A DNA stretch of 64,000 bases from Bacillota bacterium (GTDB lineage Bacteria; Bacillota; Peptococcia; Peptococcales; BICA1-8): positions 12,985 to 76,984 of the forward strand of contig JBMOKT010000008.1 of the NCBI GenBank assembly GCA_049323895.1, written 5' to 3'. Positions 4,358-57,870 of the stretch are shown piece after piece. Under the pieces are notes generated by a model that was given only the letters and a program-made list of their open reading frames with translations, did not search any database and had not been told where the DNA came from. A program made the position numbers and the translations under genes. The first letter of the stretch is position 1. The number at the start of each line of letters is the position of its first letter.

Positions 4358-4470
4358 TAGTGGCTAGTATTTAGAAAAAGAGGACTGGCGACTGGTGAAA
4401 TAATGCCGTTGACTATTAGCCGTTGACTCTTAACTATTGACCGTATACTAGTGTAACTTACACTAGTATA
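4358..4470. repeat. Family-A short tandem repeat patch (tagtggctagt; gactggcgactggtga; gttgactattagccgttgactcttaactattgacc) ending in an 11-bp-stem palindrome tatactagtgt/acactagtata
   Basis: Direct reading of the convergent intergenic region. Confidence 0.75.
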
Positions 4471-4471
4471 C

Positions 4472-4506
4472 AAAAAGTCCAGCCCTAGGCTGGACTTAAT
4501 TTTTTA
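4472..4506. terminator. Bidirectional intrinsic terminator between the cupin gene and trpP
   Basis: aaaaAGTCCAGCCctaGGCTGGACTtaatttttt: A-run, 9-bp GC-rich stem, T-run. Confidence 0.8.
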
Positions 4507-5034
4507 TTTAGTTATTTCCTGGGGACGGGACCTTTCCACAACCTGCTTGCTGAAGATAACAATGGGATAAAGAAGGGCGGCACCGATAGTATTGGCAACT
4601 GTTGCCGGTAGAACAACCGTTACGAATAATACTCCAAAGGGTGCTGGTATCCCTGCTAATGCCAAGGCTGACAATAAGAAAACAGTTCCGCTGAATACAG
4701 TCCCTACAGCCCCTATAATACCTGCTGTAATGGCTGAAGGCAATTTATTGTCCAGCATTTTTACCAGACCAAAAACAAACAAACTTGTAATCATTTTATC
4801 AATTAGGTTGGGAATCTGACCTGCGGGGAAAGTGGTGGTTAAAGCACAGATAATCCCGGCGACTCCACCTGCAAGCAGAGTAGATTTTAAATCCTTTTTG
4901 AGCAAAATAACGATAAACAGCATAGCCAAAAGTAAATCCGGCTTCATTCCTGCACCATAGCCGGGGACAATCAACCTCAGGATAAAACCAATAGCTAAAA
5001 GCAAACTAATTTGCGCAATTTCTCTAATACTCAT
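4504..5034 (-). CDS. trpP: Tryptophan transporter TrpP (YhaG family)
   Basis: 176 aa. GMKPDLLLAM, ALTTTFPAGQIPNLIDK and VVLPATVANT match my recollection of B. subtilis TrpP/YhaG almost motif for motif. Confidence 0.8.
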   Translation of the reverse strand: MSIREIAQISLLLAIGFILRLIVPGYGAGMKPDLLLAMLFIVILLKKDLKSTLLAGGVAGIICALTTTFPAGQIPNLIDKMITSLFVFGLVKMLDNKLPSAITAGIIGAVGTVFSGTVFLLSALALAGIPAPFGVLFVTVVLPATVANTIGAALLYPIVIFSKQVVERSRPQEITK

Positions 5035-5197
5035 CTAAACAATTCTCCTCTCAACTTTTCTCAACTAAACTTTTCTAAACTTCTTTGCAAAAACTAAACT
5101 TTACTAATCTCACTGTTCTTTCTCCCCTAAGCACCAGCTCCTTCTCAAATACTTATAAATAACTATAAATGTTTATCGAAGATTTTTCAATAACTTT

Positions 5198-5548
5198 TTA
5201 CTTATTATTTATATCAGGATACCATAAGTCAAAGGTCTCACCAATTATCTTTTGTACGTCGGCTATCATGCGGCCCAATTGGTATTCTGCCTCTAAAAAG
5301 TCCTTTATAACAGGGTGGAAGTTTAATATTTGAGAGGCTTTTTCCAACTCTTGCATTTTGTCTGCCGATACTTCCCTGCCCATCATTTGCAAGCCTTGAA
5401 TTTCCATTTGTTTTTTCCTCAGGCTGGTGAGAATACTTTCTTTCTCCTGATCACCTTTAATTTTACTAAGGGCTGCCTGGTATTTTTCATATTCCTGAGA
5501 GTTTTTCAGACTCCTGGCTAAGTTATGGGCGGAATCATAAACGTTCAT
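5198..5548 (-). CDS. ylbF: YlbF/YmcA-family regulatory protein
   Basis: 116 aa, helical. MNVYDSAHNLARSLKNSQEYEKYQAA...ILNFHPVIKDFLEAEYQ is typical of the UPF0342/YlbF family. Confidence 0.7.
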   Translation of the reverse strand: MNVYDSAHNLARSLKNSQEYEKYQAALSKIKGDQEKESILTSLRKKQMEIQGLQMMGREVSADKMQELEKASQILNFHPVIKDFLEAEYQLGRMIADVQKIIGETFDLWYPDINNK

Positions 5549-5712
5549 TTAAATCCCCCTTTGGTAATTTATTTTAATATATGCCTAAGTATAATAAATG
5601 TTCGAGCATAATCCTTATTCTTCCTTTTTATAATAAAATTTTTTATATATTTATTAGTCTTTTTTTAGTATAATAATTTTTAAAATTATAAAAAAAAGAA
5701 GGTTCTTCTATT

Positions 5713-6657
5713 ATGTCCATCCCACCATACATTCTGCTTATCCTGGCACCATTATTTTGGAGTGTAAATTTTCTTGTCGGGAAGGCTCTTGCAGGAGTCA
5801 TTCCAGCCGGATTTATTACACTTATGCGTTGGTTAATCACATCTATAATTCTTATTCCTATTTATAGAAAGGATCTTCTTAAAAACAGAGAATTATTTAC
5901 CTCAGGTTTGTCTATCTTGATAGCCTTAGGTCTCTCAGGGTATTTCTTTAACAGCGTGAGTACATTTTTGGCTGTACAGCATACTACAGCCATCAATGCC
6001 TCTTTCCTTACTGCCTTAAACCCGGTTGCCATAGTTATTGCAAGCTCCCTTTTATTTAAGGAACGCTCCACATTAATCCAATTGATAGGTATTGTATTTT
6101 CCTTGTTTGGCGTTCTTTGGATAGTATTCAAAGGTCATCTGACTTATATTTTCAGCCTGCAGGTAAATTTAGGTGATGCTTTTATGCTTGTTGCAGTTAT
6201 TAGCTGGGCGCTTTATTCTAATATTTTAAAGAAAAAAGGCAGTATTTTCCCCTGGCCTGCGTTATTTGCCGCCATGACCATAAGTGCTGTTGCAGTAAGT
6301 TTGCCTTATTCCATACTGGAGGTCTATTGGGAAGGCTGGGAATGGATTTTAAATTTACAGGGAAAACATTATCTAAGCATTTTGGCAATAGCAATTTTCC
6401 CTTCCTTACTTGCCTTTTACTGCTGGAATACAGCCATGCAAAAGGTTGACTCCAGCCAGGCTGCTGTTTTCATAAATTTGATTCCGGTTTTTACTACTAT
6501 ATTATCAATAATTTTTTTGGGAGAAAAATTGATGTATCATCACATTATAGGAGGGCTCCTAATTTTTCTTGGCGTTTTTATGGTTACCAACCATAATGTT
6601 TTATCAACTAAAATTAGTAAAATAATAACCACGGGTTCTATAGAACCACGTGGTTAA
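5713..6657 (+). CDS. EamA/DMT-family permease
   Basis: 314 aa, about 10 TM segments in two EamA-like halves. Confidence 0.75.
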   Translation: MSIPPYILLILAPLFWSVNFLVGKALAGVIPAGFITLMRWLITSIILIPIYRKDLLKNRELFTSGLSILIALGLSGYFFNSVSTFLAVQHTTAINASFLTALNPVAIVIASSLLFKERSTLIQLIGIVFSLFGVLWIVFKGHLTYIFSLQVNLGDAFMLVAVISWALYSNILKKKGSIFPWPALFAAMTISAVAVSLPYSILEVYWEGWEWILNLQGKHYLSILAIAIFPSLLAFYCWNTAMQKVDSSQAAVFINLIPVFTTILSIIFLGEKLMYHHIIGGLLIFLGVFMVTNHNVLSTKISKIITTGSIEPRG

Positions 6658-6669
6658 TCTAGAGCCTGG

Positions 6670-9259: not shown

Positions 9260-9295
9260 AAAACGCCTTACGGCGTTTAGTGGCTAGTAAAACAC
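9258..9295 (+). repeat. Hairpin plus TAGTGGCTAGTAAAACAC module (family A variant)
   Basis: aaAACGCCttacGGCGTTTAGTGGCTAGTAAAACAC. A near-identical module occurs at 48357-48395, and a partial one at 4346-4368. Each directly follows a plus-strand stop codon. Confidence 0.7.
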
Positions 9296-9370
9296 TTTAA
9301 AAAAGCTGAACTGGGCTAGTTATACACAACTAAAAATTTATTTTTTCCTGAAGGATAAAAAAACTTCTTT

Positions 9371-10391: not shown

Positions 10392-12194
10392 TCAGCCTTC
10401 TTGTACTGTATTTTTTCCGGCACGACCTGGGTAAGCACCTTCCTCCCGGGTTCCTAATAGTCCATCATATAAAGCCTGGACAAAGTCACCTTTGGCGGCT
10501 ACTTCTTTTAAAACAGCTGCAATGCCTGAGATAATTTCTTCCTTCCATAATTGGGCTTTTTCAGTTGCTTTAACCCCTGCACTTCCTAAGAACCTAAAGC
10601 TTTCTTGAACACCCCGCAAAGTATCAACCTTAGAAGGGACGCTGATGGGTCCGCCTGAATAAGCTTCATCTGCAGAAGCGATGGAAATTGCGTCTACCCC
10701 AAGTGCACTAGCCAGCATACCATGCAGTGAAGTTGCTAAACTTGATTGCACCCTGTCTTCAGTCTGGGTCAAAAATCCAATGGGTGCACCAGGCCAGATG
10801 GGAGCATTTATAATACTTCTTAAAGCCTCAATTTTCGCTGCATTAAAGTCCAGATAATTATCCTCCATTTGTCCGCCGATCATCATTTCCGGTGAATAAG
10901 CAAATAACGGCTGCAGGATGGGTCTGCCTCCCAGCTTTACCGCCAAATCCGCCATAATCAACATACCGGCAAAGGCTTTATAGGCAGGAACTCCCGTCAA
11001 TTCCTCATTGGTTACAATATCAAAAGGCATATTATATTTTGCAGCATATTTAATGGCATAATAGCCATCAACCGTTAAACGGGCAGGATCTGTACCGGCT
11101 GCCAGGGAGCCATAACATATATTTATTTTAGTCAAGTCTGCCCCTATTTTTCCTGCAAGGACTACTGTTTCAGGTGTATTTAAACCCCTGTGGGCTCTAA
11201 CCTGCCAAAGGGTAGATTTCTCTAAGGAATCGTAAATTCTTTTTAGATTTTCCGGGGTAATGACGGTTCCATCCTCCTGATGGGTTAGGTTCCCCCCCAG
11301 AAAACCTTCGGTGCGGGCGCCCCAGGATGGGTCAAAATGGACAACACCATCTACACCCCAAGCTTCACTTACTTTAATATGACCAATATCCATAAATGGA
11401 CAGCCTGTCCCATACTGATTCCAGACTATTGGGAGTTTTTTTGTATGCTGTAATTTTTTTACCTTCATATTTTTTTTGACTTCATTGATAAAGGAATGAT
11501 AACTGTCTAATTCGTCCCTTGTTAGTTCCCTTGTTTTAGGATGGATCTTACCCTCCAAATAATACTCCCGTGGAACCTGATCGCATAATTGGGGATATTT
11601 TGCAAGAAATTCTGTATTATCACCATTAAAAGTCCAAACTCCATCCCTTAGCTTTGCCCTCTCAACACCTGGAGAAGTCTTGTTTTTAGCCCAACTGATA
11701 ATCTGATTGCTTATTTTGTCAAGCAAATCACCAATATTCGCGTTGTAGTACCTATAATTATAGCCTTGAGTGATGTCGATTTTTTCCTTTCTTACTACTG
11801 CATCCTCAGGATTGTATTCCCGCCCTTCTACAAAGGCTAAGGCTTCTTCTACTGTGGTTCCTGGTCCAAAGCCGGCATCAAAACCTAACTCAGCCGCTAA
11901 TTCGGGGCGAATTGCCATCCCACCGATGCCGATCTTTACTTTTTCCCGCAACCCAGCAGCATCAGCCAGATCAACAAACCTTGCCAGCAATTCTGCTACA
12001 CCGTATCCTAAAGTTCTACTCAACAGCAGAGTATTGAATTGTTCATCCATAGCAATTCTGATTATTTCCTCCGGCGGTGTATCAGGCGGCAACAGCTTAG
12101 TTTCTATTCCCAATTCCTCAAGTGCCCGTTTAATCATTTTTAACCCTATATCATGAACAGGGTCTAAAGGGGACAATAATACCTTTTTGGACAT
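10392..12194 (-). CDS. Fusion protein: N-terminal B12-binding-like Rossmann domain plus a large C-terminal TIM-barrel-like domain (mutase/aminomutase-like)
   Basis: 600 aa. The N-terminal roughly 130 aa read LLSPLDPVHDIGLKMI...LLLSRTLGYG...KIGIGG, like a cobalamin-binding domain (HxxG retained, Asp shifted by one). The remainder is long alpha/beta sequence. Family assignment is not verified. Confidence 0.45.
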   Translation of the reverse strand: MSKKVLLSPLDPVHDIGLKMIKRALEELGIETKLLPPDTPPEEIIRIAMDEQFNTLLLSRTLGYGVAELLARFVDLADAAGLREKVKIGIGGMAIRPELAAELGFDAGFGPGTTVEEALAFVEGREYNPEDAVVRKEKIDITQGYNYRYYNANIGDLLDKISNQIISWAKNKTSPGVERAKLRDGVWTFNGDNTEFLAKYPQLCDQVPREYYLEGKIHPKTRELTRDELDSYHSFINEVKKNMKVKKLQHTKKLPIVWNQYGTGCPFMDIGHIKVSEAWGVDGVVHFDPSWGARTEGFLGGNLTHQEDGTVITPENLKRIYDSLEKSTLWQVRAHRGLNTPETVVLAGKIGADLTKINICYGSLAAGTDPARLTVDGYYAIKYAAKYNMPFDIVTNEELTGVPAYKAFAGMLIMADLAVKLGGRPILQPLFAYSPEMMIGGQMEDNYLDFNAAKIEALRSIINAPIWPGAPIGFLTQTEDRVQSSLATSLHGMLASALGVDAISIASADEAYSGGPISVPSKVDTLRGVQESFRFLGSAGVKATEKAQLWKEEIISGIAAVLKEVAAKGDFVQALYDGLLGTREEGAYPGRAGKNTVQEG

Positions 12195-12433
12195 TATTTA
12201 ACCTCCTCCCCTGAAAATAACCATCCATACCTATCACCAGATCTATGTAAATATGCCCTGGTCCTCACCCTGGCTCCAGGACCGATAAATTCCATAAATA
12301 CAATATCAACATCATCAAAGCCTAAATTCTTCATCATCTGCAGAGCCATTTTCTTCCCCTCTTCTTCGCTGTCACATACTAAAAATGTCTCTACATCCAA
12401 GGCATCCATTACCTTTTCTAAAACCTTAGCCAA
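12194..12433 (-). CDS. Small (79 aa) protein translationally coupled to the B12-domain protein
   Basis: TTG start with GGAGGG 6 nt upstream. Its stop TAA overlaps the downstream ATG (TAATG). Confidence 0.55.
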   Translation of the reverse strand: MAKVLEKVMDALDVETFLVCDSEEEGKKMALQMMKNLGFDDVDIVFMEFIGPGARVRTRAYLHRSGDRYGWLFSGEEVK

Positions 12434-12527: not shown

Positions 12528-12668
12528 AGTTACTAGTGACTGGTGACTGGTGACTTGTAAGTCTTAGACTTAACCTTAAAATACCGGAGTCGTATACTAG
12601 TAGGTATTATAGTTGATGGTCAATAGTTGATGGTCAATAGTCAATGGTCAGGTAGTAAATAGTGACCG
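12528..12668. repeat. Family-A tandem repeat patch: (ACTGGTG)x3, then (TTGATGGTCAATAG)x2.5
   Basis: tagttactagtgactggtgactggtgacttg ... atagttgatggtcaatagttgatggtcaatagtcaatggtcagg, read directly. Confidence 0.85.
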
Positions 12669-15547: not shown

Positions 15548-15671
15548 GTAAAATCTCCTTTCAATAAGATAAACTAAGCCTGATAGCCAAATAATCTTTA
15601 GCAATAGTATTCAAACTTCACTTACTATTGACTATTGAGCATTAACAAGGAATATTTCTTCATAAATTGTG

Positions 15672-15731
15672 CTAGTCACTAGCAACTAATAGCTTTTTAC
15701 TAGCCACTAGCGACTAACAACTAGCCACTAA
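15672..15731. repeat. Family-A heptamer patch in inverted orientation (ctagtcactag..., tactagccactagcgactaacaactagccacta)
   Basis: Direct reading. It is the reverse complement of the TAGTGGC-type arrays and abuts the stop of the PLP gene. Confidence 0.8.
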
Positions 15732-17192
15732 TTAAAGCACCCCTGCATGCTTACATACAATCTCAATAAGTTTAACCAAAGCTCTCACGGCAATTCTCAT
15801 TCTGTCAGGGATTAGATTTCCATCGTCATCAGTAGTACCTAAACCGGTAGAAATATAGATGTTGCCATCGTAAGCAATTGTTGGAATTACACCAAATTTA
15901 GTCATCCCGGTTTGTAATATATTTGTTCCGGAATACATATCTTCGATGGAGAAGATAGGAATACCCATTTGTCCATTTTTCCAAGTGCCTTCGTAGTTTA
16001 CTTCCACAGCTGTAGAATTATATACCTTGGTTATCTTAATGCCATCTCTAAACTTAGCTGGGATATTCTTGAATTCTTCAACAACAATATCATACATTTC
16101 ATCAACAGGCTTAGTTAACACTTCAGGTTTATCACGCAGAACTTTTAATGCCTGCAGTTGAGTCAGCAAGGCTTCTTTACCTGGGTCAAAGGTTACATAT
16201 GCTGCTTTACCATAGGAGGATGGAGTTCCCCAACGGTCTCCATGCATACCTAGAGCGCGGCGGATAGGAACCATTACTTCTTCTTTTCCTATAATTAGTC
16301 CACTGGTGGCTGCTCCTGTGGCTTTATCCATACTGTAAGTAATTACGTCGCAATCAATTTTCACGGGGTCAATGCCTACGAAGGGAAGACCCCAGGCATT
16401 GTCAATTACATATGGTACATTATAGGAGTGTGCCAAGTCCGCAATATATTTGCAAAGTAATGGAGTGCCTTCCTCATCTTTAACTCCATAACCGTAACCA
16501 GGTGAAGGATAACCTAAAGAGGTAAAGCCTGTTAAAAATGCTTCGTGGATTTCAGCATGCAGGGCAATTCTTTCAATAGCCGCTTCCGGGTCAACTTCCG
16601 CTAGAAGTGGAACTGGATGGTTCTTAATTCCGTGGACTTCATACTTTGCACCTTCGAGTGGAACGATTACAGTATCAAGATTGTTTTGTCTCTTGCCATA
16701 GAAGCCTAACTCACCTGCAGTTGAACCCCTGTCGGCAAATAAATCCTTATATTTTCCCGGGAAAGGACGTCCATAACTGCCTTGGTGATGTAAATGCTTT
16801 TCATAGGGAGCAATATACCTTGCCCGGTAGTTGTCACCTCTTCCCTGCATGGGAGGTGTAAACAGGGTATCAAAGCAAGTCCAGAGAGTTGCTTCACAGG
16901 TACTGGTGGATGCAGCTTCCCAGCCATCACCATAAACATCTTTTACTACTTCCCTGATTTCATCCATTAATTTTGCCAGGGGAATTACTTCTTTGGCTCC
17001 GACTTCACCAGCTTCCAAAATATCTTTTCTTAAAGGAGCAGGACAACCTGAAATTGCACCGGTCAATCCAAACCTACCCCTAATCTCATGGGGAACACCA
17101 ATTTCATCTGCAGCCTTGGCTGCATCGGCATATATTTCAGGAACTTTGGCATGAAGCTGTTTGTACATTTGATATTTATATTTAGGACTCAT
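15732..17192 (-). CDS. Fold-type-I PLP enzyme of the SelA/DgaE-like group (possible ammonia-lyase or aminotransferase)
   Basis: 486 aa. YSMDKATGAATSGLIIGKEE resembles the PLP-lysine region of SelA-like proteins. AAGGAGG upstream. Confidence 0.5.
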   Translation of the reverse strand: MSPKYKYQMYKQLHAKVPEIYADAAKAADEIGVPHEIRGRFGLTGAISGCPAPLRKDILEAGEVGAKEVIPLAKLMDEIREVVKDVYGDGWEAASTSTCEATLWTCFDTLFTPPMQGRGDNYRARYIAPYEKHLHHQGSYGRPFPGKYKDLFADRGSTAGELGFYGKRQNNLDTVIVPLEGAKYEVHGIKNHPVPLLAEVDPEAAIERIALHAEIHEAFLTGFTSLGYPSPGYGYGVKDEEGTPLLCKYIADLAHSYNVPYVIDNAWGLPFVGIDPVKIDCDVITYSMDKATGAATSGLIIGKEEVMVPIRRALGMHGDRWGTPSSYGKAAYVTFDPGKEALLTQLQALKVLRDKPEVLTKPVDEMYDIVVEEFKNIPAKFRDGIKITKVYNSTAVEVNYEGTWKNGQMGIPIFSIEDMYSGTNILQTGMTKFGVIPTIAYDGNIYISTGLGTTDDDGNLIPDRMRIAVRALVKLIEIVCKHAGVL

Positions 17193-17214: not shown

Positions 17215-17278
17215 TAGTGACTAGTGACTAGTCTTTTATTAGTAGTTAGTGGCTAGTGGCTAGTGGCTAGTTGGCTAG
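17215..17278. repeat. Family-A heptamer array: (TAGTGAC)x2, then (TAGTGGC)x3-4
   Basis: tagtgactagtgactagtcttttattagtagttagtggctagtggctagtggctagttggctag. It starts 4 nt upstream of the SD of the PLP gene. Confidence 0.9.
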
Positions 17279-20054: not shown

Positions 20055-20074
20055 TTGTGAATTCCACCTTTTTC

Positions 20075-21907: not shown

Positions 21908-22030
21908 TTATTTTTGTAAGCTCTTTGGTGTCTTAGGTTGATAGTTCCACCAAGTACAAGCAAAAGAGGAACTGATTGTTGCAAGCAACATTAATAGAGT
22001 AGAAATACCTACAAATAATGATTTTTTCAT
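21908..22030 (-). CDS. agrD: AgrD-like autoinducing-peptide precursor (40 aa): MKKSLFVGISTLLMLLATISSSFACTWWNYQPKTPKSLQK
   Basis: Not in the ORF track (<60 aa); translated by me. Its ATG overlaps the agrB stop (ATGA). It has an amphipathic leader, a single Cys followed by TWWN, then a Pro-containing charged tail (YQPKTPKSL) like clostridial AgrD. Confidence 0.75.
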   Translation of the reverse strand: MKKSLFVGISTLLMLLATISSSFACTWWNYQPKTPKSLQK

Positions 22031-22611
22031 TCTTGTACACCTCCTTTATTATTTAAGATGGGTATAAGAGTCAATGATTGGTAAAATATACCCAAAACAA
22101 TACTTAATTTCAAAACATTTGAATTTAAAACAAAATAAATAATAGTTGAAACTATCATAATAGATAATGAAGTTATTTTTAATTTTCTTTTAAAAGAAAG
22201 AGAAATTATTGGTTTTGCAGGGCTGTCTTGGGGAGCAAAACAAAAAACCAGAACAAAACTTAAAATAAGGAATAAAAAACTATAATTTACAAAAACAGTG
22301 AATAATAAATATTTATTTATAAATATACCAATTAATGTATATACTGCTGTTCCAAAAAATAAACATTTGAGAGGGGAGTCAAAATGAAAACCTCCGGATA
22401 CCTTTCTCAACAAACCGCCGAATATTGCAGCAACTGAAGCCGGAATTAGAGCTTCAAAAACAAAGGAAACAGCTACAATTAACAAAAATCCTCCCAGTTG
22501 CACAATAATATTTTCTATTGAATAAGCAATGATTTCTTTTTTTTCTTCATCATAGTTAAGTTCTTTTGTAATGAAATCAGTTAAAAATATACTCATTCTA
22601 GAATAAGTCAT
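22027..22611 (-). CDS. agrB: AgrB, accessory gene regulator B (AIP-processing membrane peptidase)
   Basis: 194 aa, polytopic. LLRKVSGGFHFDSPLKCLFFG carries the His-x6-Cys pair, spaced as in S. aureus AgrB H77/C84. Confidence 0.85.
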   Translation of the reverse strand: MTYSRMSIFLTDFITKELNYDEEKKEIIAYSIENIIVQLGGFLLIVAVSFVFEALIPASVAAIFGGLLRKVSGGFHFDSPLKCLFFGTAVYTLIGIFINKYLLFTVFVNYSFLFLILSFVLVFCFAPQDSPAKPIISLSFKRKLKITSLSIMIVSTIIYFVLNSNVLKLSIVLGIFYQSLTLIPILNNKGGVQE

Positions 22612-22615: not shown

Positions 22616-23059
22616 TCACCTTTTTCTAAAATAGTTTATAGAATATGGAATTAGAAATAATAGTATAACATATGGAAGAGAAATAATAATACGCATTCTA
22701 ATATCATAAGATAGAACTTCAGAAGAAACGTTTAGTATTTTAATCATTGTACTTGTAGATATGGTTTCTACTATAATCAAAATTAATATTGTACTAATAC
22801 TTACGACAATCGCCTTATTAATGCTAACTTCACCATACTTACTTACAATAAAAAATAATAAACCTATCGCAATGATTGTATGAACTCCAAAGGTAACAGG
22901 CATAAGTCTAATTAAATAGGATGATAGTGATAAAATGACACCAAAAGTAATTATTACTTTTATATTTAACTTTGATTTACTTAAAACTAAAGCTAGATAA
23001 ACAAGAAATATATTTTCAGGCACACCTAGAAACAACCATACTATAAAAGGCATCTTCAT
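22616..23059 (-). CDS. Polytopic membrane protein (147 aa), first gene of the agr unit
   Basis: 4-5 TM segments. Its stop is 4 nt from the agrB start. It resembles a stand-alone membrane sensor module; no kinase domain. Confidence 0.55.
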   Translation of the reverse strand: MKMPFIVWLFLGVPENIFLVYLALVLSKSKLNIKVIITFGVILSLSSYLIRLMPVTFGVHTIIAIGLLFFIVSKYGEVSINKAIVVSISTILILIIVETISTSTMIKILNVSSEVLSYDIRMRIIISLPYVILLFLIPYSINYFRKR

Positions 23060-23486: not shown

Positions 23487-24326
23487 TTAGTACTCAGGGG
23501 GCAGGTCTTTTAGCTGCTCCATGGTAAATACCGGTCCATCCAGACAAACATAACATGAACCAATATTGCAGCGCCCACATTTTCCAATACCGCATTTCAT
23601 TCTCATTTCTAAAGTGGTAATAATATCAGTATCAGCAAAATTCATCTTCTTTAGACCTTGCAAAGTAAACTTAATCATGATGGGAGGTCCGCACAAGATG
23701 GTAACCTGGGGCTTGGGAGCAAGCTCCTCAACGTATGAAGGTACAAAACCCACATGCCCATCCCAGCCTTCTTCTTCCCTGTCGATTGTTACACAAACAT
23801 CCATATTGGGAACCTTGGGCCAATTTTCAAATAAGTCTTCTTTGAAACACAGGTCTCCTTTGCTTCTGGCACCATAAACAACTGTTAACTTGCCAAAGTC
23901 ATCCCGGTTTTTTACACAGTGCATAATCAGACTGCGTACAGGTGCCAGCCCTATACCGCCACCGATAAAGAGAATATCCTTCCCTTTACAGTAGTCTATA
24001 GGAAAACCATTGCCGTATGGTCCGCGAATACCCACTTCCTGCCCGACTTCTATTTCATGCAAGGAATTAGTCAATTGACCTACAGCCCTAATTGCCATTT
24101 CTATATGATTTTCACCCTTATTAGTGATAGAAAACATGCCTTCGCCTATAGCAGGCATTGATAGCATCCCCAACTGACCAGGCGCAGGGTCAAAAGGTAT
24201 TTTGCCATCTATGGTGCTGATGTGAAAGGTTTTTACATCATGGGTTTCCTGGACAATATCGATAATTTTCCCTCTTATAGGTACTAGAGGATTAATTCTT
24301 TTCACCTCTTCAGGAGTAATTGCCAA
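23487..24326 (-). CDS. FlxA-like FAD/NAD(P)-binding oxidoreductase with a C-terminal [2Fe-2S] motif (AsrB/HydG-like)
   Basis: 279 aa. TTG start with GGAGGG 6 nt upstream. GGGIGLAP nucleotide-binding motif. C-terminal CGIGKCGRCNIGSCYVC. Confidence 0.7.
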   Translation of the reverse strand: MAITPEEVKRINPLVPIRGKIIDIVQETHDVKTFHISTIDGKIPFDPAPGQLGMLSMPAIGEGMFSITNKGENHIEMAIRAVGQLTNSLHEIEVGQEVGIRGPYGNGFPIDYCKGKDILFIGGGIGLAPVRSLIMHCVKNRDDFGKLTVVYGARSKGDLCFKEDLFENWPKVPNMDVCVTIDREEEGWDGHVGFVPSYVEELAPKPQVTILCGPPIMIKFTLQGLKKMNFADTDIITTLEMRMKCGIGKCGRCNIGSCYVCLDGPVFTMEQLKDLPPEY

Positions 24327-24345: not shown

Positions 24346-24476
24346 TAGTGGCTAATGTTAGTGGCTAGTTGTTAGTGGCTAGTGGCTAGTAAATAGTTAC
24401 TGGTGACTGGTGACTGGTGACTGGTTACTGGTTACTAGACAACGGTCGATGGCTAATAGTCGATAGCCAATAGCTA
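24346..24476. repeat. Family-A array block: (TAGTGGC)n, then (ACTGGTG/ACTGGTT)n, then cgatggctaatagtcgatagccaatagc
   Basis: ttagtggctaatgttagtggctagttgttagtggctagtggctagtaaatagttactggtgactggtgactggtgactggttactggttactag..., read directly. It starts 6 nt upstream of the flxA-like SD. Confidence 0.9.
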
Positions 24477-24563
24477 TATTTTTAAAAGCTGATTTACCAC
24501 GCTCCTGTTATTAGCTGGTAATAACAAATCCGTTGAATCTCAGTCCGCAAAGCAAAATCTAAT

Positions 24564-24603
24564 CTTTTTCTGTAGCCACTGTAGACACTGTAGCTACTGT
24601 AGG
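24564..24603. repeat. Family-A nonamer array CTTTTTCTGTAGcca CTGTAGaca CTGTAGcta CTGTAG
   Basis: Direct reading; it ends 11 nt from the stop of the flxB-like gene. Confidence 0.9.
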
Positions 24604-24614
24604 TTCTATTAGGT

Positions 24615-25604
24615 CTACGCTTCCTGTATCTTCTTAATAACAGACGTTATATCAAGGTTCACGGGGCATTTGGTTACACAACGTCCGCATCCTGTGCATA
24701 AAAGCATATTATACCTCTCTGGGAAGTAACGAAGCTTGTGCAAGAAACGGTTCCTGACCCGTTCCTTCTTGCCCGGTCTGGGCTGGTGTCCGCCGGCCAT
24801 CATTGTATATTCGTCAAACATACAGCAGTCCCAGCAGCGTATTTTGACTCCATCTTCCCCCCGCACTTCATTGGCAATGTCAAAACAGTGGCAGGTTGGA
24901 CATACATAGGCACAGGCACTGCAGTTCAGACATTTGCGGGAAATATCATCCCAGATGGGGTGGTCAAACATATCTTTCAGCTTCTCAGGAACACCTTCTA
25001 CATCTGCAGCCAGGGTGAACTCTCCCACCGCCGGAATAGCTGCATCTTCCTCTTGCAGAAGTCCGGAAACTTTATTTAGTATCTCTGTTCCCTTGTCAGA
25101 AAGAGGCTCAAACCCTATTTTCTCGCCTAAATCATAAGCTTGGATATCCGCACCTTGTCCTTTTTGAGGGTCTATACCCATAGATGAACAAAAGCAGGAA
25201 GCCATTGGTTTTACACAGCTTAAAGCGATAAAAATACTGCGATCCCTTTTTTCCTGATAATAGGGGTCTACAAAACCTTTAGTTAGAAAAACTTGGTCTA
25301 GGCAATCTATACTCTTCATATCACAGGAACGTACTCCAAATAGAACCTGAGTTTCTTTTTCACCGGGTATTTCTTCAATTTCCAGTGACTGATCCTTAGT
25401 CTTAAACTTATACATTTTCTCCGTTTGAGGGAAGAAAATATCCTTGGGAGGCATAACTACATTTTCCTCCAGGGCCAGTTCAACATCCTGCTGGTAAGGA
25501 GCAAACCTGGTGACTCCTTGGAATTTAGCAGGGACTAAGACCTTATATTCCTTGGCCAGTGATTCTAAAAACTGGGGTAAATTAGCCTTGGCTATAGTTT
25601 TCAT
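24615..25604 (-). CDS. FlxB-like iron-sulfur protein (AsrA/HydB-like 4Fe-4S dicluster protein)
   Basis: 329 aa. CLNCSACAYVCPTCHC and CTGCGRCVTKCP ferredoxin-type motifs. Confidence 0.65.
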   Translation of the reverse strand: MKTIAKANLPQFLESLAKEYKVLVPAKFQGVTRFAPYQQDVELALEENVVMPPKDIFFPQTEKMYKFKTKDQSLEIEEIPGEKETQVLFGVRSCDMKSIDCLDQVFLTKGFVDPYYQEKRDRSIFIALSCVKPMASCFCSSMGIDPQKGQGADIQAYDLGEKIGFEPLSDKGTEILNKVSGLLQEEDAAIPAVGEFTLAADVEGVPEKLKDMFDHPIWDDISRKCLNCSACAYVCPTCHCFDIANEVRGEDGVKIRCWDCCMFDEYTMMAGGHQPRPGKKERVRNRFLHKLRYFPERYNMLLCTGCGRCVTKCPVNLDITSVIKKIQEA

Positions 25605-31180: not shown

Positions 31181-32116
31181 ATGTTCAGTATTTTTCTGTT
31201 TTTGGCAGGTTTGCTGATTTTCTTAACAGGCTTATATATCCTTAAAACCGGTCTTAAGTATATGTACAGCATAAACCTAAAAACAGTGATAAATAATTTT
31301 ACCCATACACCACTTAAAGGATGTTTAACCGGGACTGCCTTGACTATGCTCCTCCAATCCTCCAGTGCGGTAACTGTCATCACTATAGGACTTGTCGATA
31401 CAGGGTTGATGGTTTTCACCCAGGCCCTGGGGATTGTCTTGGGCACAAATATCGGTACAACCTTAACGGGTCAAATTTTAGCCTTTAATTTGGAAAAATT
31501 AGGGCTCCCTATTATATATATGGGGTTGCTGCTTATTCTTTTTCCAGGTCTCCTGAGGGGAATTGGTTTTAATCTATGCGGGCTGGGTATGATTTTTTTA
31601 GGAATGGATTTTATGGCAAAAGCCTTTTTATTTATCCAAAGCAACCCACTTTTTTATCACCTTTTAATCATAACCCAAAGAAACAATCTCCTAGCTGTAA
31701 TAGCAGGCATAATCTTTACGGCAATTATCCAATCGAGTAGTGCCATGACAGGAATAGTCCTGGTCCTGGCCAAAAACGGACAGTTAAACCTGGTAACAGC
31801 TACTGCCATAATCCTGGGAAGCAATGTCGGTACTTGCATAACCGCCCTCTTGGCTGCCATAGGTTCCACAACTGCCGGCAAAAGGGTTGCTGCTGCCCAT
31901 GTATTATTAAATATCTTGGGTGTGCTCCTTTTCTATCCCTTCCTTTTACAGTTTACCCAGTTAATGTCCCTTACCAGCACCGATTTGCCGCGGCAAATTG
32001 CCCATACCCATACTGTTTTTAACATTCTAAGTTCTCTTTTAGTATTACCCTTTGCCGGGCTGTTCACCCGGCTGATTTGCTGGATGGTACCGCAGTCAAA
32101 CATTAGTGACCAGTGA
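31181..32116 (+). CDS. Na/Pi-cotransporter-family membrane protein (no PhoU-like tail)
   Basis: 311 aa. Duplicated LGTNIGTT / LGSNVGTC motifs characteristic of the Na_Pi_cotrans family. Confidence 0.75.
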   Translation: MFSIFLFLAGLLIFLTGLYILKTGLKYMYSINLKTVINNFTHTPLKGCLTGTALTMLLQSSSAVTVITIGLVDTGLMVFTQALGIVLGTNIGTTLTGQILAFNLEKLGLPIIYMGLLLILFPGLLRGIGFNLCGLGMIFLGMDFMAKAFLFIQSNPLFYHLLIITQRNNLLAVIAGIIFTAIIQSSSAMTGIVLVLAKNGQLNLVTATAIILGSNVGTCITALLAAIGSTTAGKRVAAAHVLLNILGVLLFYPFLLQFTQLMSLTSTDLPRQIAHTHTVFNILSSLLVLPFAGLFTRLICWMVPQSNISDQ

Positions 32117-32157
32117 CCGGTGCACAATGCCCAGTTGAAAAATATTGTAAAATATTA

Positions 32158-45421: not shown

Positions 45422-45462
45422 CTTTTTCTGTAGTACTGTAGTTACTGTAGCACTGTAGTCAC
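45422..45462. repeat. Family-A nonamer array CTTTTTCTGTAGta CTGTAGtta CTGTAGca CTGTAGtca
   Basis: Direct reading; it ends 16 nt from the copZ stop. Confidence 0.9.
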
Positions 45463-45478
45463 TTACCACAAAGAATTA

Positions 45479-45715
45479 CTATAAAACCGTATAGCCCGCT
45501 TCCTCAATAGCCGCCTTTATAGCATCTACTGTTACCAAATCTGGATTATACTCAAATCTTACCTCTTTTTCTTCTAAACTTACCACGGCATTTGTTACAC
45601 CATTCAGCTCATCGACAGCCTTCTCTACTGAACCTTTGCAATGACCGCAGGTCATTCCTTCCACCTTTAAAACACCGGTATGAACATGGGATCCGCAGTT
45701 GCAGCACTCACACAT
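45479..45715 (-). CDS. copZ: Copper chaperone CopZ-like HMA-domain protein with a Cys-rich N-terminal extension
   Basis: 78 aa. GMTCGHC metal-binding loop and ferredoxin-like HMA pattern. The N-terminus is MCECCNCGSHVH. Confidence 0.85.
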   Translation of the reverse strand: MCECCNCGSHVHTGVLKVEGMTCGHCKGSVEKAVDELNGVTNAVVSLEEKEVRFEYNPDLVTVDAIKAAIEEAGYTVL

Positions 45716-46587: not shown

Positions 46588-48066
46588 TTGAAGATTTTGC
46601 AATTAAGCACTCTTTTACCTGTAAGTCCGGCTTTAGAAATAGTGACCTTTATTTTTACATTAACTATTATATTTATTGGAATTGTTATATTTTTTGAAAA
46701 TGATGACCCCTCCAAAACTTTGGCCTGGCTGCTGGTCCTGGTGTTTTTCCCTGTGTTAGGATTTTTGTTGTATATATTTTTGGGACGTAAATTCCGCAAA
46801 ATAAAAAGATATAAGAAAAAGGGGATTGAAAACCTGGCTGAGCTCTCTAAAATTATTACTAATGAATCCAGGCTTATCACTAAAGGGCAGGGATTTATTG
46901 ATAAATACATCCCCCATAAAAAAAAGCTGATAAATCTTATTACTACTTCTGCCAGTGCCCCCTTTACCATCAACAACAAAACTACCATCTTTAACAACGG
47001 AACCGACACCTTTCAAAGCTTTTTAGAGGAGATTGAAAAAGCGCAGCACCATATCCATTTGGAGTTCTACATATTTAGGGACGATAAAATTGGAACCGAA
47101 ATAAAAGACCTGTTAATAAGTAAAGCTCGCCAGGGGGTTAAGGTGCGATTTATTTATGATGGTTATGGAAGCATTCAATTAAGCAAAAGTTTTATTGAGG
47201 AAATGAAAAAAAACGGTATCCGAACAGTCTGTTTTGCCCCCGTGATCCTGCCCATTATTAACAACAGGATTAATTACCGCAATCATAGGAAGATATTAGT
47301 GGTGGACGGATCGGTGGGTTTTGTGGGAGGGATTAATGTCGGTGATGAATACCTGGGAAAAAGTGAGGATTTTTTTTATTGGCGTGATACCCATCTGCGT
47401 ATAGAAGGCGATGCAGTCAAATTTTTGCAGCATATCTTCATCCAGGATTGGTATTTTGCTGCCAAAGAACGAATTAACGCAAAACAATATTATCCTGATT
47501 CCAGGGAAAACATAGGCGAAGAATTGGTTCAAATTGCTGCAAGCGGTCCAGATTCACCCTGGGAATCAATTATGCAAATGTATTTTTCCATGATTTCCAC
47601 GGCGGATGAGTCCATCTACTTGACTACTCCCTATTTTATTCCCAACGGAAGTATATTAATGGCTTTAAAAAATGCTGCCTTAAGCGGTCTGGACGTACGG
47701 ATTCTCATTCCCGGTAAGCCTGACAGCAGATTTGTCTTATGGGCGTCAATGTCTTACATTAATGAATTATTAGAAGCCGGTGTACGGGTTTATCAATATC
47801 AAAAAGGATTTATTCACTCTAAAACCTTAATAGTTGATAGTCTTGTTTCATCAGTGGGGACTGCTAATATGGATTTGCGAAGCTTTAAACTTAATTTTGA
47901 AGTAAATGCATTTATTTATAATGAAGAATCAGCAAAACAGCTGGTATCAGACTTTTTCAATGATCTTAAAGACAGTAAAGAAATAGACTACTACATGTAT
48001 CAGCAGAGATCCTTAGGCTTTAGATTCCTGGAATCTACCGCCCGTTTATTTTCACCACTGCTATAA
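46588..48066 (+). CDS. cls: Cardiolipin synthase
   Basis: 492 aa. Two N-terminal TM segments and two HKD motifs (NHRKILVVDG; IHSKTLIVDS). TTG start after AGGAGG. Confidence 0.9.
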   Translation: MKILQLSTLLPVSPALEIVTFIFTLTIIFIGIVIFFENDDPSKTLAWLLVLVFFPVLGFLLYIFLGRKFRKIKRYKKKGIENLAELSKIITNESRLITKGQGFIDKYIPHKKKLINLITTSASAPFTINNKTTIFNNGTDTFQSFLEEIEKAQHHIHLEFYIFRDDKIGTEIKDLLISKARQGVKVRFIYDGYGSIQLSKSFIEEMKKNGIRTVCFAPVILPIINNRINYRNHRKILVVDGSVGFVGGINVGDEYLGKSEDFFYWRDTHLRIEGDAVKFLQHIFIQDWYFAAKERINAKQYYPDSRENIGEELVQIAASGPDSPWESIMQMYFSMISTADESIYLTTPYFIPNGSILMALKNAALSGLDVRILIPGKPDSRFVLWASMSYINELLEAGVRVYQYQKGFIHSKTLIVDSLVSSVGTANMDLRSFKLNFEVNAFIYNEESAKQLVSDFFNDLKDSKEIDYYMYQQRSLGFRFLESTARLFSPLL

Positions 48067-48201
48067 TTATGGAGAATTGAGAATTGAGAATAAATAACCG
48101 GAGTTCTATTGAAAAAATCAAAAAGAGGATTTTACATATTAATATCGAAGTAATTATTATTCAATTTCTAACATCTAACTTCTAAAAAGGAGGTCATAAC
48201 A

Positions 48202-48357
48202 ATGGGGATTAATGTTATTGCGTGGTTAACCCTGATTGTATTCAGTGGTATTCTTTTTTATCAAATGTTCGGGCTGGATGACGCATTTGACCCGATGCTG
48301 GCAGAACATGTTGATTTCGATATGAAAAAACCTGAAAACGGAGATCATCATCACTAA
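48202..48357 (+). CDS. Untracked small membrane protein (51 aa): MGINVIAWLTLIVFSGILFYQMFGLDDAFDPMLAEHVDFDMKKPENGDHHH
   Basis: My own translation. AGGAGG 8 nt upstream. One TM helix plus an acidic, His-ended tail. Followed by a hairpin-TAGTGGC module. Confidence 0.55.
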   Translation: MGINVIAWLTLIVFSGILFYQMFGLDDAFDPMLAEHVDFDMKKPENGDHHH

Positions 48358-48449
48358 AAAACGTCTGCGGCGTTTAGTGGCAAGTAAAACACATAAAAAC
48401 CTTTCTACTATAACAAAATCCCAAAGAACTTAATGGGGCTTTCCGCCAA

Positions 48450-56712: not shown

Positions 56713-56809
56713 TTTTAACCTCCTCTCGGATATGGAATATCTTTAAACCTTGGCGAAGGCTAATATAGTGTAATTTTAACCGAACGTATGTTTGGTTGTC
56801 AACCTGACT

Positions 56810-57259
56810 TTAACCCGAGTTTAGATATTTATTTAAAACTTCACGTGGGAAGAATCTGCCTGGACACTGGGTATTGCTGCCTGGAATTTCTTTGTGTGTT
56901 TCAATTTTTTCCACAGGAATGTTATAAACCCTTTGCAGCTTTTTAATTAAATTCACCAAACCCTTTAACTGCTCCGGTCCAACGCTGTCATACTCAAAAT
57001 TTCCTATCAAACAAATCCCTATTGCCGTAAAATTCCTATTGCCGGCCCGGGTATGAGCTCCAATTTTATCTAGGGGTCTCCCTACCTCCACTTTCCCATC
57101 GGGAAGTACTACATAGTGGTAGCCAATATCACTCCAGCCTCGTTCATTAACATGCCACCCCCTGATCATTTCCCCATCTACACTTACCCATTTTTCACCC
57201 CGCCAAAAACCTCGAGGGCTGGCGGAATGATGGATTACTATTTCCCGCCATTTAACCAT
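56810..57259 (-). CDS. N-acetylmuramoyl-L-alanine amidase (amidase_2/PGRP fold)
   Basis: 149 aa. IVIHHSASP, GWSDIGYHYVV, GAHTRAGNRNFTAIGICLIGNF. Confidence 0.85.
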   Translation of the reverse strand: MVKWREIVIHHSASPRGFWRGEKWVSVDGEMIRGWHVNERGWSDIGYHYVVLPDGKVEVGRPLDKIGAHTRAGNRNFTAIGICLIGNFEYDSVGPEQLKGLVNLIKKLQRVYNIPVEKIETHKEIPGSNTQCPGRFFPREVLNKYLNSG

Positions 57260-57413
57260 TCATTCTTACCTCCTTGAGTGCTTCGATTACCTTGGCCAGT
57301 TCAATTATTGACATGGAAAGGCTCTCCAATTTCCCTTCTATCCGAACCAGCAAATAGATGCTTATTACCATAGGAAAACCATAGTTGCCAATCTGCTGCA
57401 ATAAAGTTTCCAA
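57252..57413 (-). CDS. YvrJ-family small membrane protein
   Basis: The track ORF is trimmed to the TTG at 57413 (GGAGGTG 6 nt upstream), giving METLLQQIGNYGFPMVISIYLLVRIEGKLESL, typical of YvrJ. Overlaps the amidase start by 8 nt. Confidence 0.65.
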   Translation of the reverse strand: METLLQQIGNYGFPMVISIYLLVRIEGKLESLSMSIIELAKVIEALKEVRMNG

Positions 57414-57414
57414 T

Positions 57415-57633
57415 TTAATCACCTCCAGACAAATCAAATTCTTTTATAACCTGTTCTTCGCCGGAGATAATTTCCTGGATTATTTGCAGGCAGGAATTGC
57501 ACAAAAGCAAGTCTCCTACCACCTGCTTTCTATGCCAAATTACCATTCTTTTTTCAACTATCTCCAGACGATCACACAAGTTGCATTTATATTTCTTGGC
57601 AGCCTGATAAGGCTGGATATCGATTTTGTTCAT
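57415..57633 (-). CDS. Small zinc-ribbon-like protein (CxxC...CxxC)
   Basis: 72 aa. KCNLCDRLE...LLCNSCLQ. AAGGAGGG upstream. Its stop is 1 nt from the YvrJ start. Confidence 0.55.
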   Translation of the reverse strand: MNKIDIQPYQAAKKYKCNLCDRLEIVEKRMVIWHRKQVVGDLLLCNSCLQIIQEIISGEEQVIKEFDLSGGD

Positions 57634-57650
57634 GTAAACCCTCCTTTTAT

Positions 57651-57731
57651 TAGTAGTGGCTAGTTGTTAGTGGCTAGTGGCTAGTGGCTAGTAAGGATTA
57701 GTTACTGATGTCTAGTGCCAGGTGACTGGTA
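57651..57731. repeat. Family-A array block: (TAGTGGC)n, then gttactg/gtgactggt
   Basis: tagtagtggctagttgttagtggctagtggctagtggctagtaaggattagttactgatgtctagtgccaggtgactggt. It starts about 5 nt upstream of the SD of the Zn-ribbon gene. Confidence 0.9.
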
Positions 57732-57825
57732 TATGTATGGAAGTATGAGAGTGGGAAAGTTTAATAGTTTGATATGTAGGGGGAGGTTTCCATGCCGCCC
57801 CCCCACAAATAAAACTTCCTTCTAT

Positions 57826-57870
57826 CTTTTTCTGTAGCTACCGTAGTCACTGTAGATACTGTAGCTACTG
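57826..57870. repeat. Family-A nonamer array CTTTTTCTGTAGcta CcGTAGtca CTGTAGata CTGTAGcta CTG
   Basis: Direct reading; it ends 22 nt from the stop of the DUF2922 gene. Confidence 0.9.

Follow-up and report, generated by a model that had tools for sequence, protein, structure and literature searches.

What are the numerous short tandem arrays, built from units of 7, 9 and 14 nt, that lie between the genes of a Firmicute, and what keeps them there? The question is raised by 64 kb of DNA from a metagenome-assembled genome (MAG) of the Bacillota (Peptococcales), positions 12,985 to 76,984 of contig JBMOKT010000008.1 (assembly GCA_049323895.1). This whole stretch was analyzed and is referred to below as the window. 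An earlier note, made from this DNA alone, had listed such arrays and likened them to the short tandemly repeated repetitive (STRR) sequences of cyanobacteria. Four types of unit are distinguished here: A (TAGTGGC, with the variant A′, TAGTGAC; jointly TAGTGRC), B (ACTGGTG or ACTGGTT, jointly ACTGGTK), C (9-mers, CTGTAGN3) and D (14-mers). The observation of intergenic tandem heptamer-based arrays was confirmed. As to their nature, we give about an even chance to the explanation that they are heptanucleotide simple-sequence arrays that arose by slippage, were spread by copying and have been filtered by selection at the RNA level, i.e. passive modules of untranslated regions (UTRs).

Tandem Repeats Finder detected arrays of period 7, 9 or 14 at 4405, 12532, 12609, 15624, 15699, 17215, 17247, 24346, 24399, 24445, 24570, 45428, 57654 and 57832, and this analysis, combined with direct reading of the sequences, bore out essentially all positions given in the earlier note. 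About 14 true tandem arrays, the longest composed of approximately 13 units, are spread over seven intergenic regions. Tandem dimers of TAGTGRC (n = 6), ACTGGTK (n = 5) and the C unit (CTGTAGN3CTGTAG, n = 5) are 100% intergenic, and their mean number in 100 dinucleotide-preserving shuffles of the window was 0.0, so the tandem units are clearly more frequent than composition predicts. Single units are only mildly enriched; the signal lies in the tandem arrangement. Among perfect runs (at least period + 5 matches, periods 5-12), period 7 alone was found (n = 6, five of the six intergenic).

The note had also considered an assembly artefact. Logan short-read contigs of SRR32167787, an independent assembly, agree with the window without mismatch (0 mismatches), and two of them stop within A arrays, at 24386 and 57678, which is what a repeated k-mer breaking the de Bruijn graph would lead one to expect. 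The exact match and the contig ends within arrays indicate that the arrays are present in the reads and do not result from assembly. The arrays and related elements of the window are listed below (SD, Shine-Dalgarno sequence; ORF, open reading frame).

24346..24436, minus strand: compound A+B array, about 13 units in one unbroken 7-nt register, ending 7 nt 5′ of the SD of gene 23487..24326 (minus)
24445..24473, unstranded: D module, two 14-mers of the GTCGATAGCCAATA type, between the B array and the spacer
24562..24607, minus strand: C module, sense (CTACAGTNN)x4 then AAAAAGAT, beginning 12 nt past the stop codon of gene 24615..25604 (minus)
57654..57692, minus strand: A array, TAGTGGC x5.6 on the plus strand; sense GCCACTA, ending about 9 nt 5′ of the SD of a 72-aa gene, 57415..57633 (minus)
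57700..57730, minus strand: degenerate B-type units (sense CCAGTCACCTGGCACTAGACATCAGTAACTAA) adjoining the A array, seen in alignment
57824..57870, minus strand: C module, sense (CTACAGTNN)x4 then AAAAAGAT, beginning 22 nt past the stop codon of the DUF2922 gene 57893..58117 (minus)
17215..17278, minus strand: A′ (TAGTGAC x2.6) and A (TAGTGGC x4.4) arrays; sense GTCACTA/GCCACTA, ending 6 nt 5′ of the SD of gene 15732..17192 (minus)
15672..15731, minus strand: inverted A array directly beside the stop codon of gene 15732..17192 (minus); the sense strand is the G-rich reading, TAGTGGC...
15621..15646, unstranded: D-like units (ACTATTG x2), 85% complementary to 12626-12651
12532..12555, minus strand: B array, ACTGGTG x3.4 on the plus strand, sense CACCAGT, about 100 nt 5′ of a 79-aa gene, 12194..12433 (minus)
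12609..12663, unstranded: D array, 14-mer TTGATGGTCAATAG x3, with an internal TTGA..TCAA inverted repeat and heptamer decay (GTCAATA)
4357..4445, unstranded: composite of A (TAGTGGC TAGTATT), B (ACTGGCG ACTGGTG) and D (GCCGTTGACTATTA x2) in a convergent region, from the cupin stop codon (4345) to a bidirectional terminator (4470-4495)
45428..45463, minus strand: C array of 8-9-nt units (sense CTACAGT...) then AAAAAG, 15 nt past the stop codon of the copZ-like HMA gene 45479..45715 (minus)
9261..9302, unstranded: dispersed element of about 40 nt, hairpin AAAACGCCTTACGGCGTTT, a single TAGTGGC and TAGTAAAACAC, in a convergent intergenic region
48357..48400, unstranded: the 40-nt element (hairpin and single unit) of 9261..9302 again, with 91% identity between the two copies
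48072..48091, plus strand: (GAGAATT)x2.9 directly past the stop codon of gene 46588..48066 (plus); sense purine-rich and C-free
48167..48185, plus strand: (TCTAACA)x2.7 abutting the SD (AAAGGAGG) of a small plus-strand ORF starting at 48204; sense G-free
32103..32123, plus strand: weak member, degenerate TAGTGAC CAGTGAC CGGTGCA, overlapping the stop codon of ORF 31181..32116 (plus)

Of the sites listed earlier, 9278 and 48373 are lone TAGTGGC units within the ~40-nt hairpin element, and 57721 is a single degenerate unit. The statement that no array lies inside a coding sequence holds for all but the weak site 32103, which overlaps the final codons and the TGA of ORF 31181..32116. Two heptamer arrays, (GAGAATT)2.9 at 48072 and (TCTAACA)2.7 at 48167, were absent from the earlier list. 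A coding potential of the 9-mer C arrays was considered and rejected: they follow stop codons, units of 8 and of 9 nt occur together in the copy at 45428, and other frames contain stops.

Two co-directional regions, 24327-24614 and 57634-57892 (both with the minus strand as sense), share a common layout. The stop codon of the upstream gene is followed by 12-22 nt, (CTACAGTNN)x4 and AAAAAGAT, an unrelated spacer of about 100 nt, the 14-mer D module, (A/C)ACCAGT units, G(C/T)CACTA units, 6-9 nt rich in A/T, and then GGAGG with the start codon. Alignment of the two regions is possible at both ends only. In the array 24346..24436 the sense order is TAACCAG x2, TCACCAG x3 and then CCACTAG/CCACTAA variants; these four units are one-substitution neighbours that keep a single 7-nt phase over about 13 units, and the same gradation can be read as CACCAGT, CACTAGT, CACTAGC, each one substitution apart. 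A and B are thus not separate families, as the earlier note had treated them, but partly one array with drifting variants.

The position of the modules relative to genes is regular. The distance from the end of an A/B array to the SD is 6-9 nt at three window genes and at three sites in the relatives designated L119 and L124 (see below), and C arrays begin 12-22 nt past the stop codon at three genes. The module end always reads ...G(C/T)CACTAA, and what comes next is an SD, a stop codon (inverted module) or a terminator hairpin. The composite 4357..4445, read on the minus strand, ends in ...ACTAGCCACTAAATTTAGG, which resembles the SD-proximal junctions at other loci; the minus strand of the 9261..9302 element reads ACTAGCCACTAA followed by a terminator hairpin and T6, and the C array 45428..45463 is positioned upstream of a terminator hairpin (45386-45407).

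The order of unit variants is shared between loci. The series TAGTGGC-TAGTTGT-TAGTGGC-TAGTGGC-TAGT occurs at 24359-24390, at 57654-57685 and, inverted, at 15699-15730, with 92-97% identity; the 57654 array has 92% identity to 24359-24390 in an identical variant order, and the inverted array 15672..15731 is 97% complementary to 57654-57685. Since independent slippage would not recreate shared variant orders, array segments have evidently been copied among intergenic regions. Similar relationships connect further modules: the C modules 24562..24607 and 57824-57869 are 87% identical over 46 nt, flank ATCTTTTT included, the composite 4357..4445 is 76% identical to 24372-24413, and the D module 24445..24473 is 75% complementary to 4411-4442. 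With respect to B, D modules are found both ways round. Neither terminal inverted repeats nor target-site duplications, the marks of a MITE-like element (miniature inverted-repeat transposable element), were seen at the two composites 24327-24614 and 57634-57892, and their A end does not match their C end as an inverted copy.

A simple rule describes the arrays that precede genes: every array abutting an SD has a G-poor sense strand. This applies to three A/B arrays in the window and three in the relatives, as well as to (TCTAACA)n before the plus-strand gene at 48204. Predicted RNA folding of the two strands differs accordingly. The sense RNA of 24346..24436 reached -13.5 kcal/mol (z -1.6) and its complement -46.1 kcal/mol (z -7.3); the corresponding values were -9.3 (z -0.1) and -34.9 kcal/mol (z -3.9) for 57654..57692, and -10.4 (z -0.9) and -27.0 kcal/mol (z -3.7) for 17215..17278. 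The leader sense RNAs are therefore predicted to be essentially unstructured. The predicted hairpins of the complementary strand are long and require G·U pairing of A-type with B-type units; when the same sequences were folded as single-stranded DNA, the strand asymmetry was much weaker.

The only A array at a 3′ end (15672-15731) has a G-rich sense strand with a predicted 21-bp hairpin (-30.2 kcal/mol, z -5.6; antisense z -1.4). Its segment 15699-15737 is 85% complementary to segment 17233-17271 of the 5′ array of the same gene, 15732..17192. The C module 24562..24607 contains a small GUAGCUAC hairpin in the predicted fold. Taken as a whole, the composite intergenic RNAs show no exceptional global secondary structure (z 0.02 and -1.96), and in an Rfam scan of the window only a TPP (thiamine pyrophosphate) riboswitch exceeded the gathering threshold, with no match at the arrays. 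Most window genes lie on the minus strand, and the GC skew is negative to about 57 kb. At ~57000-58800 the skew changes sign, the main gene strand flips from minus to plus and the cumulative skew has its minimum near 58 kb. No DnaA-box cluster was found near this switch, TTATCCACA with up to one mismatch occurring at chance level; the switch may mark an origin, a terminus or a rearrangement.

A metagenome scan with a 486-aa protein of the window yielded 79 homologous loci, of which the closest are L119 (at 89% amino-acid identity) and L124 (at 87%, with synteny across 21 kb). Both carry arrays at the same orthologous intergenic regions as the window and lack them where the window has none. SD-proximal unit types were kept (CACCAGT, CACTAGT, TAACTAA), the sites orthologous to 17215..17278 have the same unit types beside the SD, and CTACAG units followed by GAAAAAG recur. 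The remainder of each orthologous intergenic region cannot be aligned to the window. Other units appear in these relatives as well, i.e. GTCTATA, GTCCATA and AAGGTT/AACCTT hexamer arrays that form hairpins. Since the remaining homologous loci (about 870 of the 913 kb scanned) contain almost no heptamer arrays, the array trait is, judged from these comparisons, lineage-specific, persistent in position and fast-evolving in sequence. Two further repeats were noted in L124: GATGCATC-type palindromes every 30-40 nt at 3590-3760, orthologous to 24327-24614, and a GAATGTCAGTG motif that is repeated at 15340-15440 and occurs once in the window (17470-17500).

The units were also sought in other genomes. 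Among the matches listed, (TAGTGRC)3 was present in more than 118 reference-genome stretches of about a dozen phyla, including the Bacillota Dialister, Megasphaera, Acidaminococcus, Fusicatenibacter and Clostridia MAGs, so the units do occur in other Firmicutes. In viral contigs, (TAGTGRC)3 was found in 23 stretches and (ACTGGTK)3 in 36, while three composition-matched control heptamers were found in 2, 34 and 31. A universal sequence-specific element across phyla was therefore rejected: the control heptamers are about as common, and hence the TAGTGRC unit is not special. Arrays of heptamers are common in general and there are few heptamer classes, so any one heptamer will turn up in many genomes; for this class, a unit shared by distant phyla is to be expected by chance and should not be taken as a sign of horizontal transfer.

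Period 7 accounted for 200 of the 222 perfect arrays (at least three copies) in the listed (TAGTGRC)3 loci and, with the searched units removed, for 81 of 101 and 107 of 154 arrays in the match loci of other genomes. Graded compound arrays were also found in Dialister, Fusicatenibacter and Megasphaera loci, the Megasphaera series being CCACGAG, CCACTAA, CCCCTAA, CCCCTAG, CCACTAG. A Megasphaera sp. locus (L032) has very long graded heptamer arrays at ~5100-5230 and 7600-7760, in which variants shift one base at a time. The inverted arrays of another locus (L086), (GCTGGTG)n, contain the E. coli Chi octamer GCTGGTGG, probably by coincidence. Loci retrieved by the A or B patterns are enriched in a CAGT/CTAG core (z 5-8); in loci found with control patterns, CAGT occurred 5 times (2.1 expected) and TCAG 8 times (2.2 expected). 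Because neighbouring units are mutational derivatives, this enrichment is largely an effect of ascertainment, and a CAG-containing core shared among heptamer units is a weak lead.

The cross-phylum TAGTGRC arrays are almost exclusively intergenic (128 of 130 among the matches listed). With improved ORF calls for the same listed matches, 36 lie in convergent, 30 in co-directional and 8 in divergent regions (8/74). They tend to be oriented against the majority coding strand (41:22, p=0.02 among the matches listed). An orientation set by replication was rejected: across phyla the orientation of the arrays is unrelated to local GC skew (36:37 among the matches listed). Within the window replication is inseparable from transcription. 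Overall, the orientation evidence across phyla is weak, since the statistics depend on crude gene calls.

The explanation favoured above may be set out as follows. Replication slippage with a 7-nt step would make and resize the arrays; point mutations would produce unit variants, and block amplification of these would yield the graded series CACCAGT, CACTAGT, CACTAGC in one register. Segments would then spread between intergenic regions, probably through recombination, gene conversion or template switching; in the window comparisons, array segments showed no transposase-type ends. Position, orientation and predicted folding suggest how the arrays may be retained: they would be transcribed in UTRs or intercistronic RNA, with selection acting on that RNA. 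The G-poor strand, unable to pair with itself, would be tolerated beside the SD, where it may even help as an unstructured leader or standby tract. The G/U-rich strand with its G·U hairpins would be the sense strand only at gene 3′ ends, where a hairpin may be harmless or stabilizing. Such arrays would be neither specific operator arrays nor phase-variation switches. Of the roles suggested in the earlier note, one at the RNA level thus best fits the anatomy, and contingency tracts are unlikely, given the metabolic and housekeeping neighbours and a position upstream of SDs or after stop codons.

Several observations weigh against this explanation. The sample is small (64 kb, about 14 arrays), and the directions of transcription and replication coincide in the window, leaving few independent cases of orientation. 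The composite 4357-4445 lacks the folding asymmetry, and C arrays at 3′ ends are mildly C-rich on the sense strand, so G-richness at 3′ ends is not general. Across phyla, among the matches listed, a crude nearest-gene count of orientation (58:23, crude ORF calls) is in part opposite to the 41:22 bias, and the co-directional subset with improved ORF calls is not significant (13:4 vs 6:7). Persistence in relatives and the fixed SD distance could equally mean a specific function, which the model does not require. Finally, the 7-nt step is left unexplained.

Persistence and spacing are the starting point of an explanation that we consider unlikely, in which the arrays are multivalent platforms for a single-strand-binding protein with a ~7-nt footprint (a cold-shock-domain protein or ribosomal protein S1) that tunes translation of a regulon. 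Cold-shock domains bind about 6-7 nt per monomer. A platform of this kind would agree with the strict 7-nt register of up to 13 units, with an SD distance of 6-9 nt that is constant in the window genome and the relatives, with the predicted single-strandedness of the sense strand, and with the persistence of arrays at orthologous sites though the surrounding DNA is unalignable. The same proposal was made for the TAACTGA repeats of Beggiatoaceae (PMC4679880), and a role was argued for the start-adjacent heptamers of Nostoc recF/recO (bioRxiv 10.1101/2022.06.06.494920). However, one sequence-specific binder is hard to reconcile with the several different units found even within one array (CACCAGT, AACCAGT, CACTAGC, TCTAACA, to which the relatives add GTCTATA, GTCCATA and AAGGTT), and the flanking genes are unrelated in function. 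Somewhat less probable is the view that the arrays are neutral debris of slippage, free of RNA-level selection and intergenic because 7-nt indels break reading frames, with orientation and position as sampling noise or by-products of replication. Arrays of arbitrary heptamer units are indeed common, units turn over quickly between relatives, the cross-phylum orientation trends are weak, and 7-nt-preferring slippage has been proposed for the whole class (Mrazek 2007, as cited in PMC4679880). Neutrality would nevertheless leave unaccounted for the G-poor sense of every leader array in the window and the relatives, that of the plus-strand gene included, the avoidance of divergent regions (8/74 among the matches listed), an orientation tied to the coding strand and not to GC skew, and the persistence of arrays at orthologous regions at ~87% amino-acid identity; the shared variant order, moreover, means copying beyond local slippage. 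No more probable, if anything slightly less so, is that the predicted strand asymmetry forms a directional "RNA-structure code". The arrays would then be an open, G-poor landing pad for ribosomes in the gene direction and a very stable G·U hairpin (-27 to -46 kcal/mol) in reverse, would mark gene boundaries and insulate genes from antisense transcription or read-through, would let the 5′ and 3′ arrays of one mRNA pair (17233-17271 with 15699-15737), and would be actively copied to gene boundaries. If this were true, the orientation rule common to Xanthomonas and cyanobacterial heptamers would be explained.

The remaining explanations are very improbable in our judgement. That the C...D-B-A block is a non-autonomous mobile element (MITE-like, or a mosaic like BOX or the bacterial interspersed mosaic elements, BIMEs) inserting at gene boundaries might be read from the regions 24327-24614 and 57634-57892, which have both end modules in the same order with differing middles, from the recurrence of modules in both orientations and varied combinations, and from the A end always facing a gene boundary. 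However, no terminal inverted repeats or recognizable target-site duplications were seen, overall secondary structure is lacking (z 0.02 and -1.96), module lengths differ by whole units, the orthologous regions of relatives offer no clean empty site, and no transposase is linked. Scarcely more credible, and perhaps a little less, is the loading of Rho on 90-nt C-rich, G-poor, unstructured tracts (rut-like sites) that would cause conditional termination or polarity between the upstream and the array-bearing gene. The sense strand of 24346-24436, with ~33% C and 10% G as counted from the sequence, is predicted to be unstructured and lies in a 288-nt untranslated intercistronic gap that has no recognizable promoter or intrinsic terminator; yet several arrays are too short (2-3 units), and Rho could not explain the class, since to our knowledge cyanobacteria, which have the richest heptamer arrays, lack Rho.

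The least probable proposal regards the arrays as contingency (phase-variation) tracts or as heptad operators recognized by a DNA-binding repressor (cf. omega/ribbon-helix-helix proteins), with copy number tuning transcription. Heptad periodicity is in its favour, as heptad repeats act in transcription control elsewhere, e.g. TTTTGAT of Vibrio cholerae ctxAB and the sites of SARP regulators, and the rotation AGTCACT is one mismatch from the omega heptad consensus, WATCACW. It nonetheless fits worst, because the arrays lie outside promoter spacers and reading frames, i.e. between any plausible promoter and the SD or past stop codons, 3′ ends of genes included, and because the flanking genes are metabolic. 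A possible exception to the absence of tracts from frames and -35/-10 spacers is the overlap of the D array with a promoter-like TTGACC-N18-TAGTAT on the minus strand (12623..12594), a consensus match only. The neighbours comprise hdr/flx-like Fe-S proteins and flavoproteins, a copZ-like HMA protein, an amidase, a cluster of a pyridoxal phosphate (PLP) enzyme, RidA and a B12-binding, ornithine aminomutase-like protein, and the small proteins DUF2922, DUF1659 and YvrJ; the host is an environmental anaerobe, and many different units are in use.

Several other elements were distinguished in the window. An element of ~111 nt (core ...AAACACGGCTTGCGCCGAGCCTTTGGCGACTGCGGAAGCCGATGTTGCACTTATACTTATTACC...) is present on the plus strand at 20069-20179, 40369-40479 and 59747-59857 with 82-86% identity, in two of the three cases followed by terminator-like hairpins. 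It matched no Rfam family (best, SpF25 small RNA, 23.8 bits against a gathering score of 48), and its consensus fold has three stems with little covariation among only three sequences; the element may represent an unclassified small RNA or a leader. ORF 22027..22611 (minus) encodes an AgrB homologue (Pfam E 9e-35), and the short ORF downstream of it, ending in ...CTWWNYQPKTPKSLQK, has the appearance of an AgrD-type peptide precursor. Similar 27-nt direct repeats (x2) at 22637-22688, upstream of the agrB-like locus, and at 50690-50745 are candidates that could bind a quorum-sensing response regulator. The leader of trpP (minus strand, 5030-5160, gene 4504..5034, TrpP tryptophan transporter) contains a 15-nt tandem repeat, sense AAAAGTTTAGTTGAG x3.5, with dense UAG/GAG triplets up to the start codon, an arrangement that recalls TRAP-type (G/U)AG binding sites. 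The TPP riboswitch (Rfam RF00059, 74 bits) is located at 3304-3411 (plus), upstream of ORF 3398..3964. Four near-identical intergenic G/C hairpins (CCCCAGAGGTTCCTCTGGGGGG; 621-642, 1914-1935, 50844-50865 and 54817-54838) are probably a shared terminator motif. An intergenic 10-nt tandem repeat (ATTTTTCTAC x5) at 23129-23178 lies upstream of gene 22616..23059, and a Logan contig (L198) ends there too.

How, then, do these arrays relate to known systems? Mazel et al. reportedly described the STRR heptamers of heterocystous cyanobacteria, CCCCAGT, TTGGTCA and CAACAGT, in 1990. As in STRRs, several heptamer families are found in one genome, tandem, intergenic and dispersed over many loci near gene starts and stops, so the STRR-like character claimed in the earlier note stands at the level of the class. 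The units and the host both differ, which excludes strict STRR membership: the window units CACCAGT, the 14-mer containing TGGTCAA and CTACAGT(NN) are each one mismatch off the STRR units, and the host is a member of the Bacillota (Peptococcales), not a heterocystous cyanobacterium; proteins of the window match those of a Bacillota MAG exactly, and their closest cluster mate is labelled Peptococcales. Exact (CCCCAGT)2 was absent from the relatives of the window and was found in one unrelated locus only. Since control heptamers are equally widespread, the closeness of units, which the note had found striking, is a resemblance of class and is not evidence of homology or common descent. The window arrays also differ from STRRs in forming ordered composites with 9-mer and 14-mer modules. 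The pneumococcal BOX (boxA-boxB(n)-boxC) and the enterobacterial BIMEs with their repetitive extragenic palindromes (REP) are modular mosaic intergenic repeats with longer units and strong palindromes or secondary structure, transcribed together with neighbouring genes. The composites share with them a fixed order of modules, a tandemly reiterated internal module and the intergenic location, but their units are of 7-14 nt and their whole-region folds are not exceptional.

An excess of heptanucleotides among prokaryotic long simple-sequence repeats (LSSRs) is established (Mrazek 2007, as cited in PMC4679880 and PMC4692102); according to these accounts, LSSRs have 5-11-nt units, are longer than expected by chance, biased towards non-coding DNA and phylogenetically scattered, and slippage is proposed as their origin. 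The window arrays have the same properties: units of this size, lengths above what composition predicts, dominance of period 7 over neighbouring periods and, for units that are not a multiple of three, a non-coding site (all tandem dimers intergenic). The LSSR definition, as given in those accounts, is statistical and silent on position, order and orientation, and the Firmicute examples discussed there are not heptamer families. Related reading is provided by "Satellites in the prokaryote world" (PMC6749651). In the searchable literature we found no description of heptamer families in Clostridia-type genomes, in agreement with the earlier note.

Heptamers beside start codons were reported in Beggiatoaceae (MacGregor 2015, PMC4679880). 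These TAACTGA repeats, found in marine Beggiatoaceae and some Cyanobacteria and Bacteroidetes, likewise occur in 2-6 copies a few nt 5′ of start codons, precede genes with no common function and are patchily spread (PMC4679880). Unlike the window arrays, they consist of essentially one unit and replace or overlap the ribosome-binding site, whereas the window arrays keep a canonical GGAGG, stop 6-9 nt before it and use several units. The GGGAATC repeats of Xanthomonas and GGGGAYT repeats of Nostoc are over-represented in non-coding DNA and mostly transcribed (Rehm et al. 2015, PMC4692102); the Nostoc unit GGGGA(C/T)T is the same as CCCCAGT on the other strand, rotated. They are reported to follow the same rule of position and orientation: their G-rich strand is antisense just 5′ of ORFs and sense just past stop codons, and divergent regions are avoided (PMC4692102). 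They have G-tracts, form G-quadruplexes in vitro and prefer four units; the window units have no G-tracts, and their predicted asymmetry comes from G·U-containing hairpins.

The window arrays are thus a Firmicute example of the known heptanucleotide LSSR/STRR class and, strictly speaking, not an STRR family. The class itself was already known, and its window units are also present in the genomes of other Bacillota. Knowledge of intergenic heptamer arrays goes back to 1990 (STRRs) and that of their prokaryotic excess to 2007, with neither the 7-nt step nor a function explained. In practical terms, such arrays break short-read assemblies and are likely to mislead UTR annotation, and could serve as strain markers. 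The Firmicute case adds description: ordered composites, evidence of copying, a constant distance to a canonical SD, which makes the geometry of the arrays easy to read, and strand-asymmetric predicted RNA folding. These features provide a testable explanation for the orientation rule seen in several phyla.

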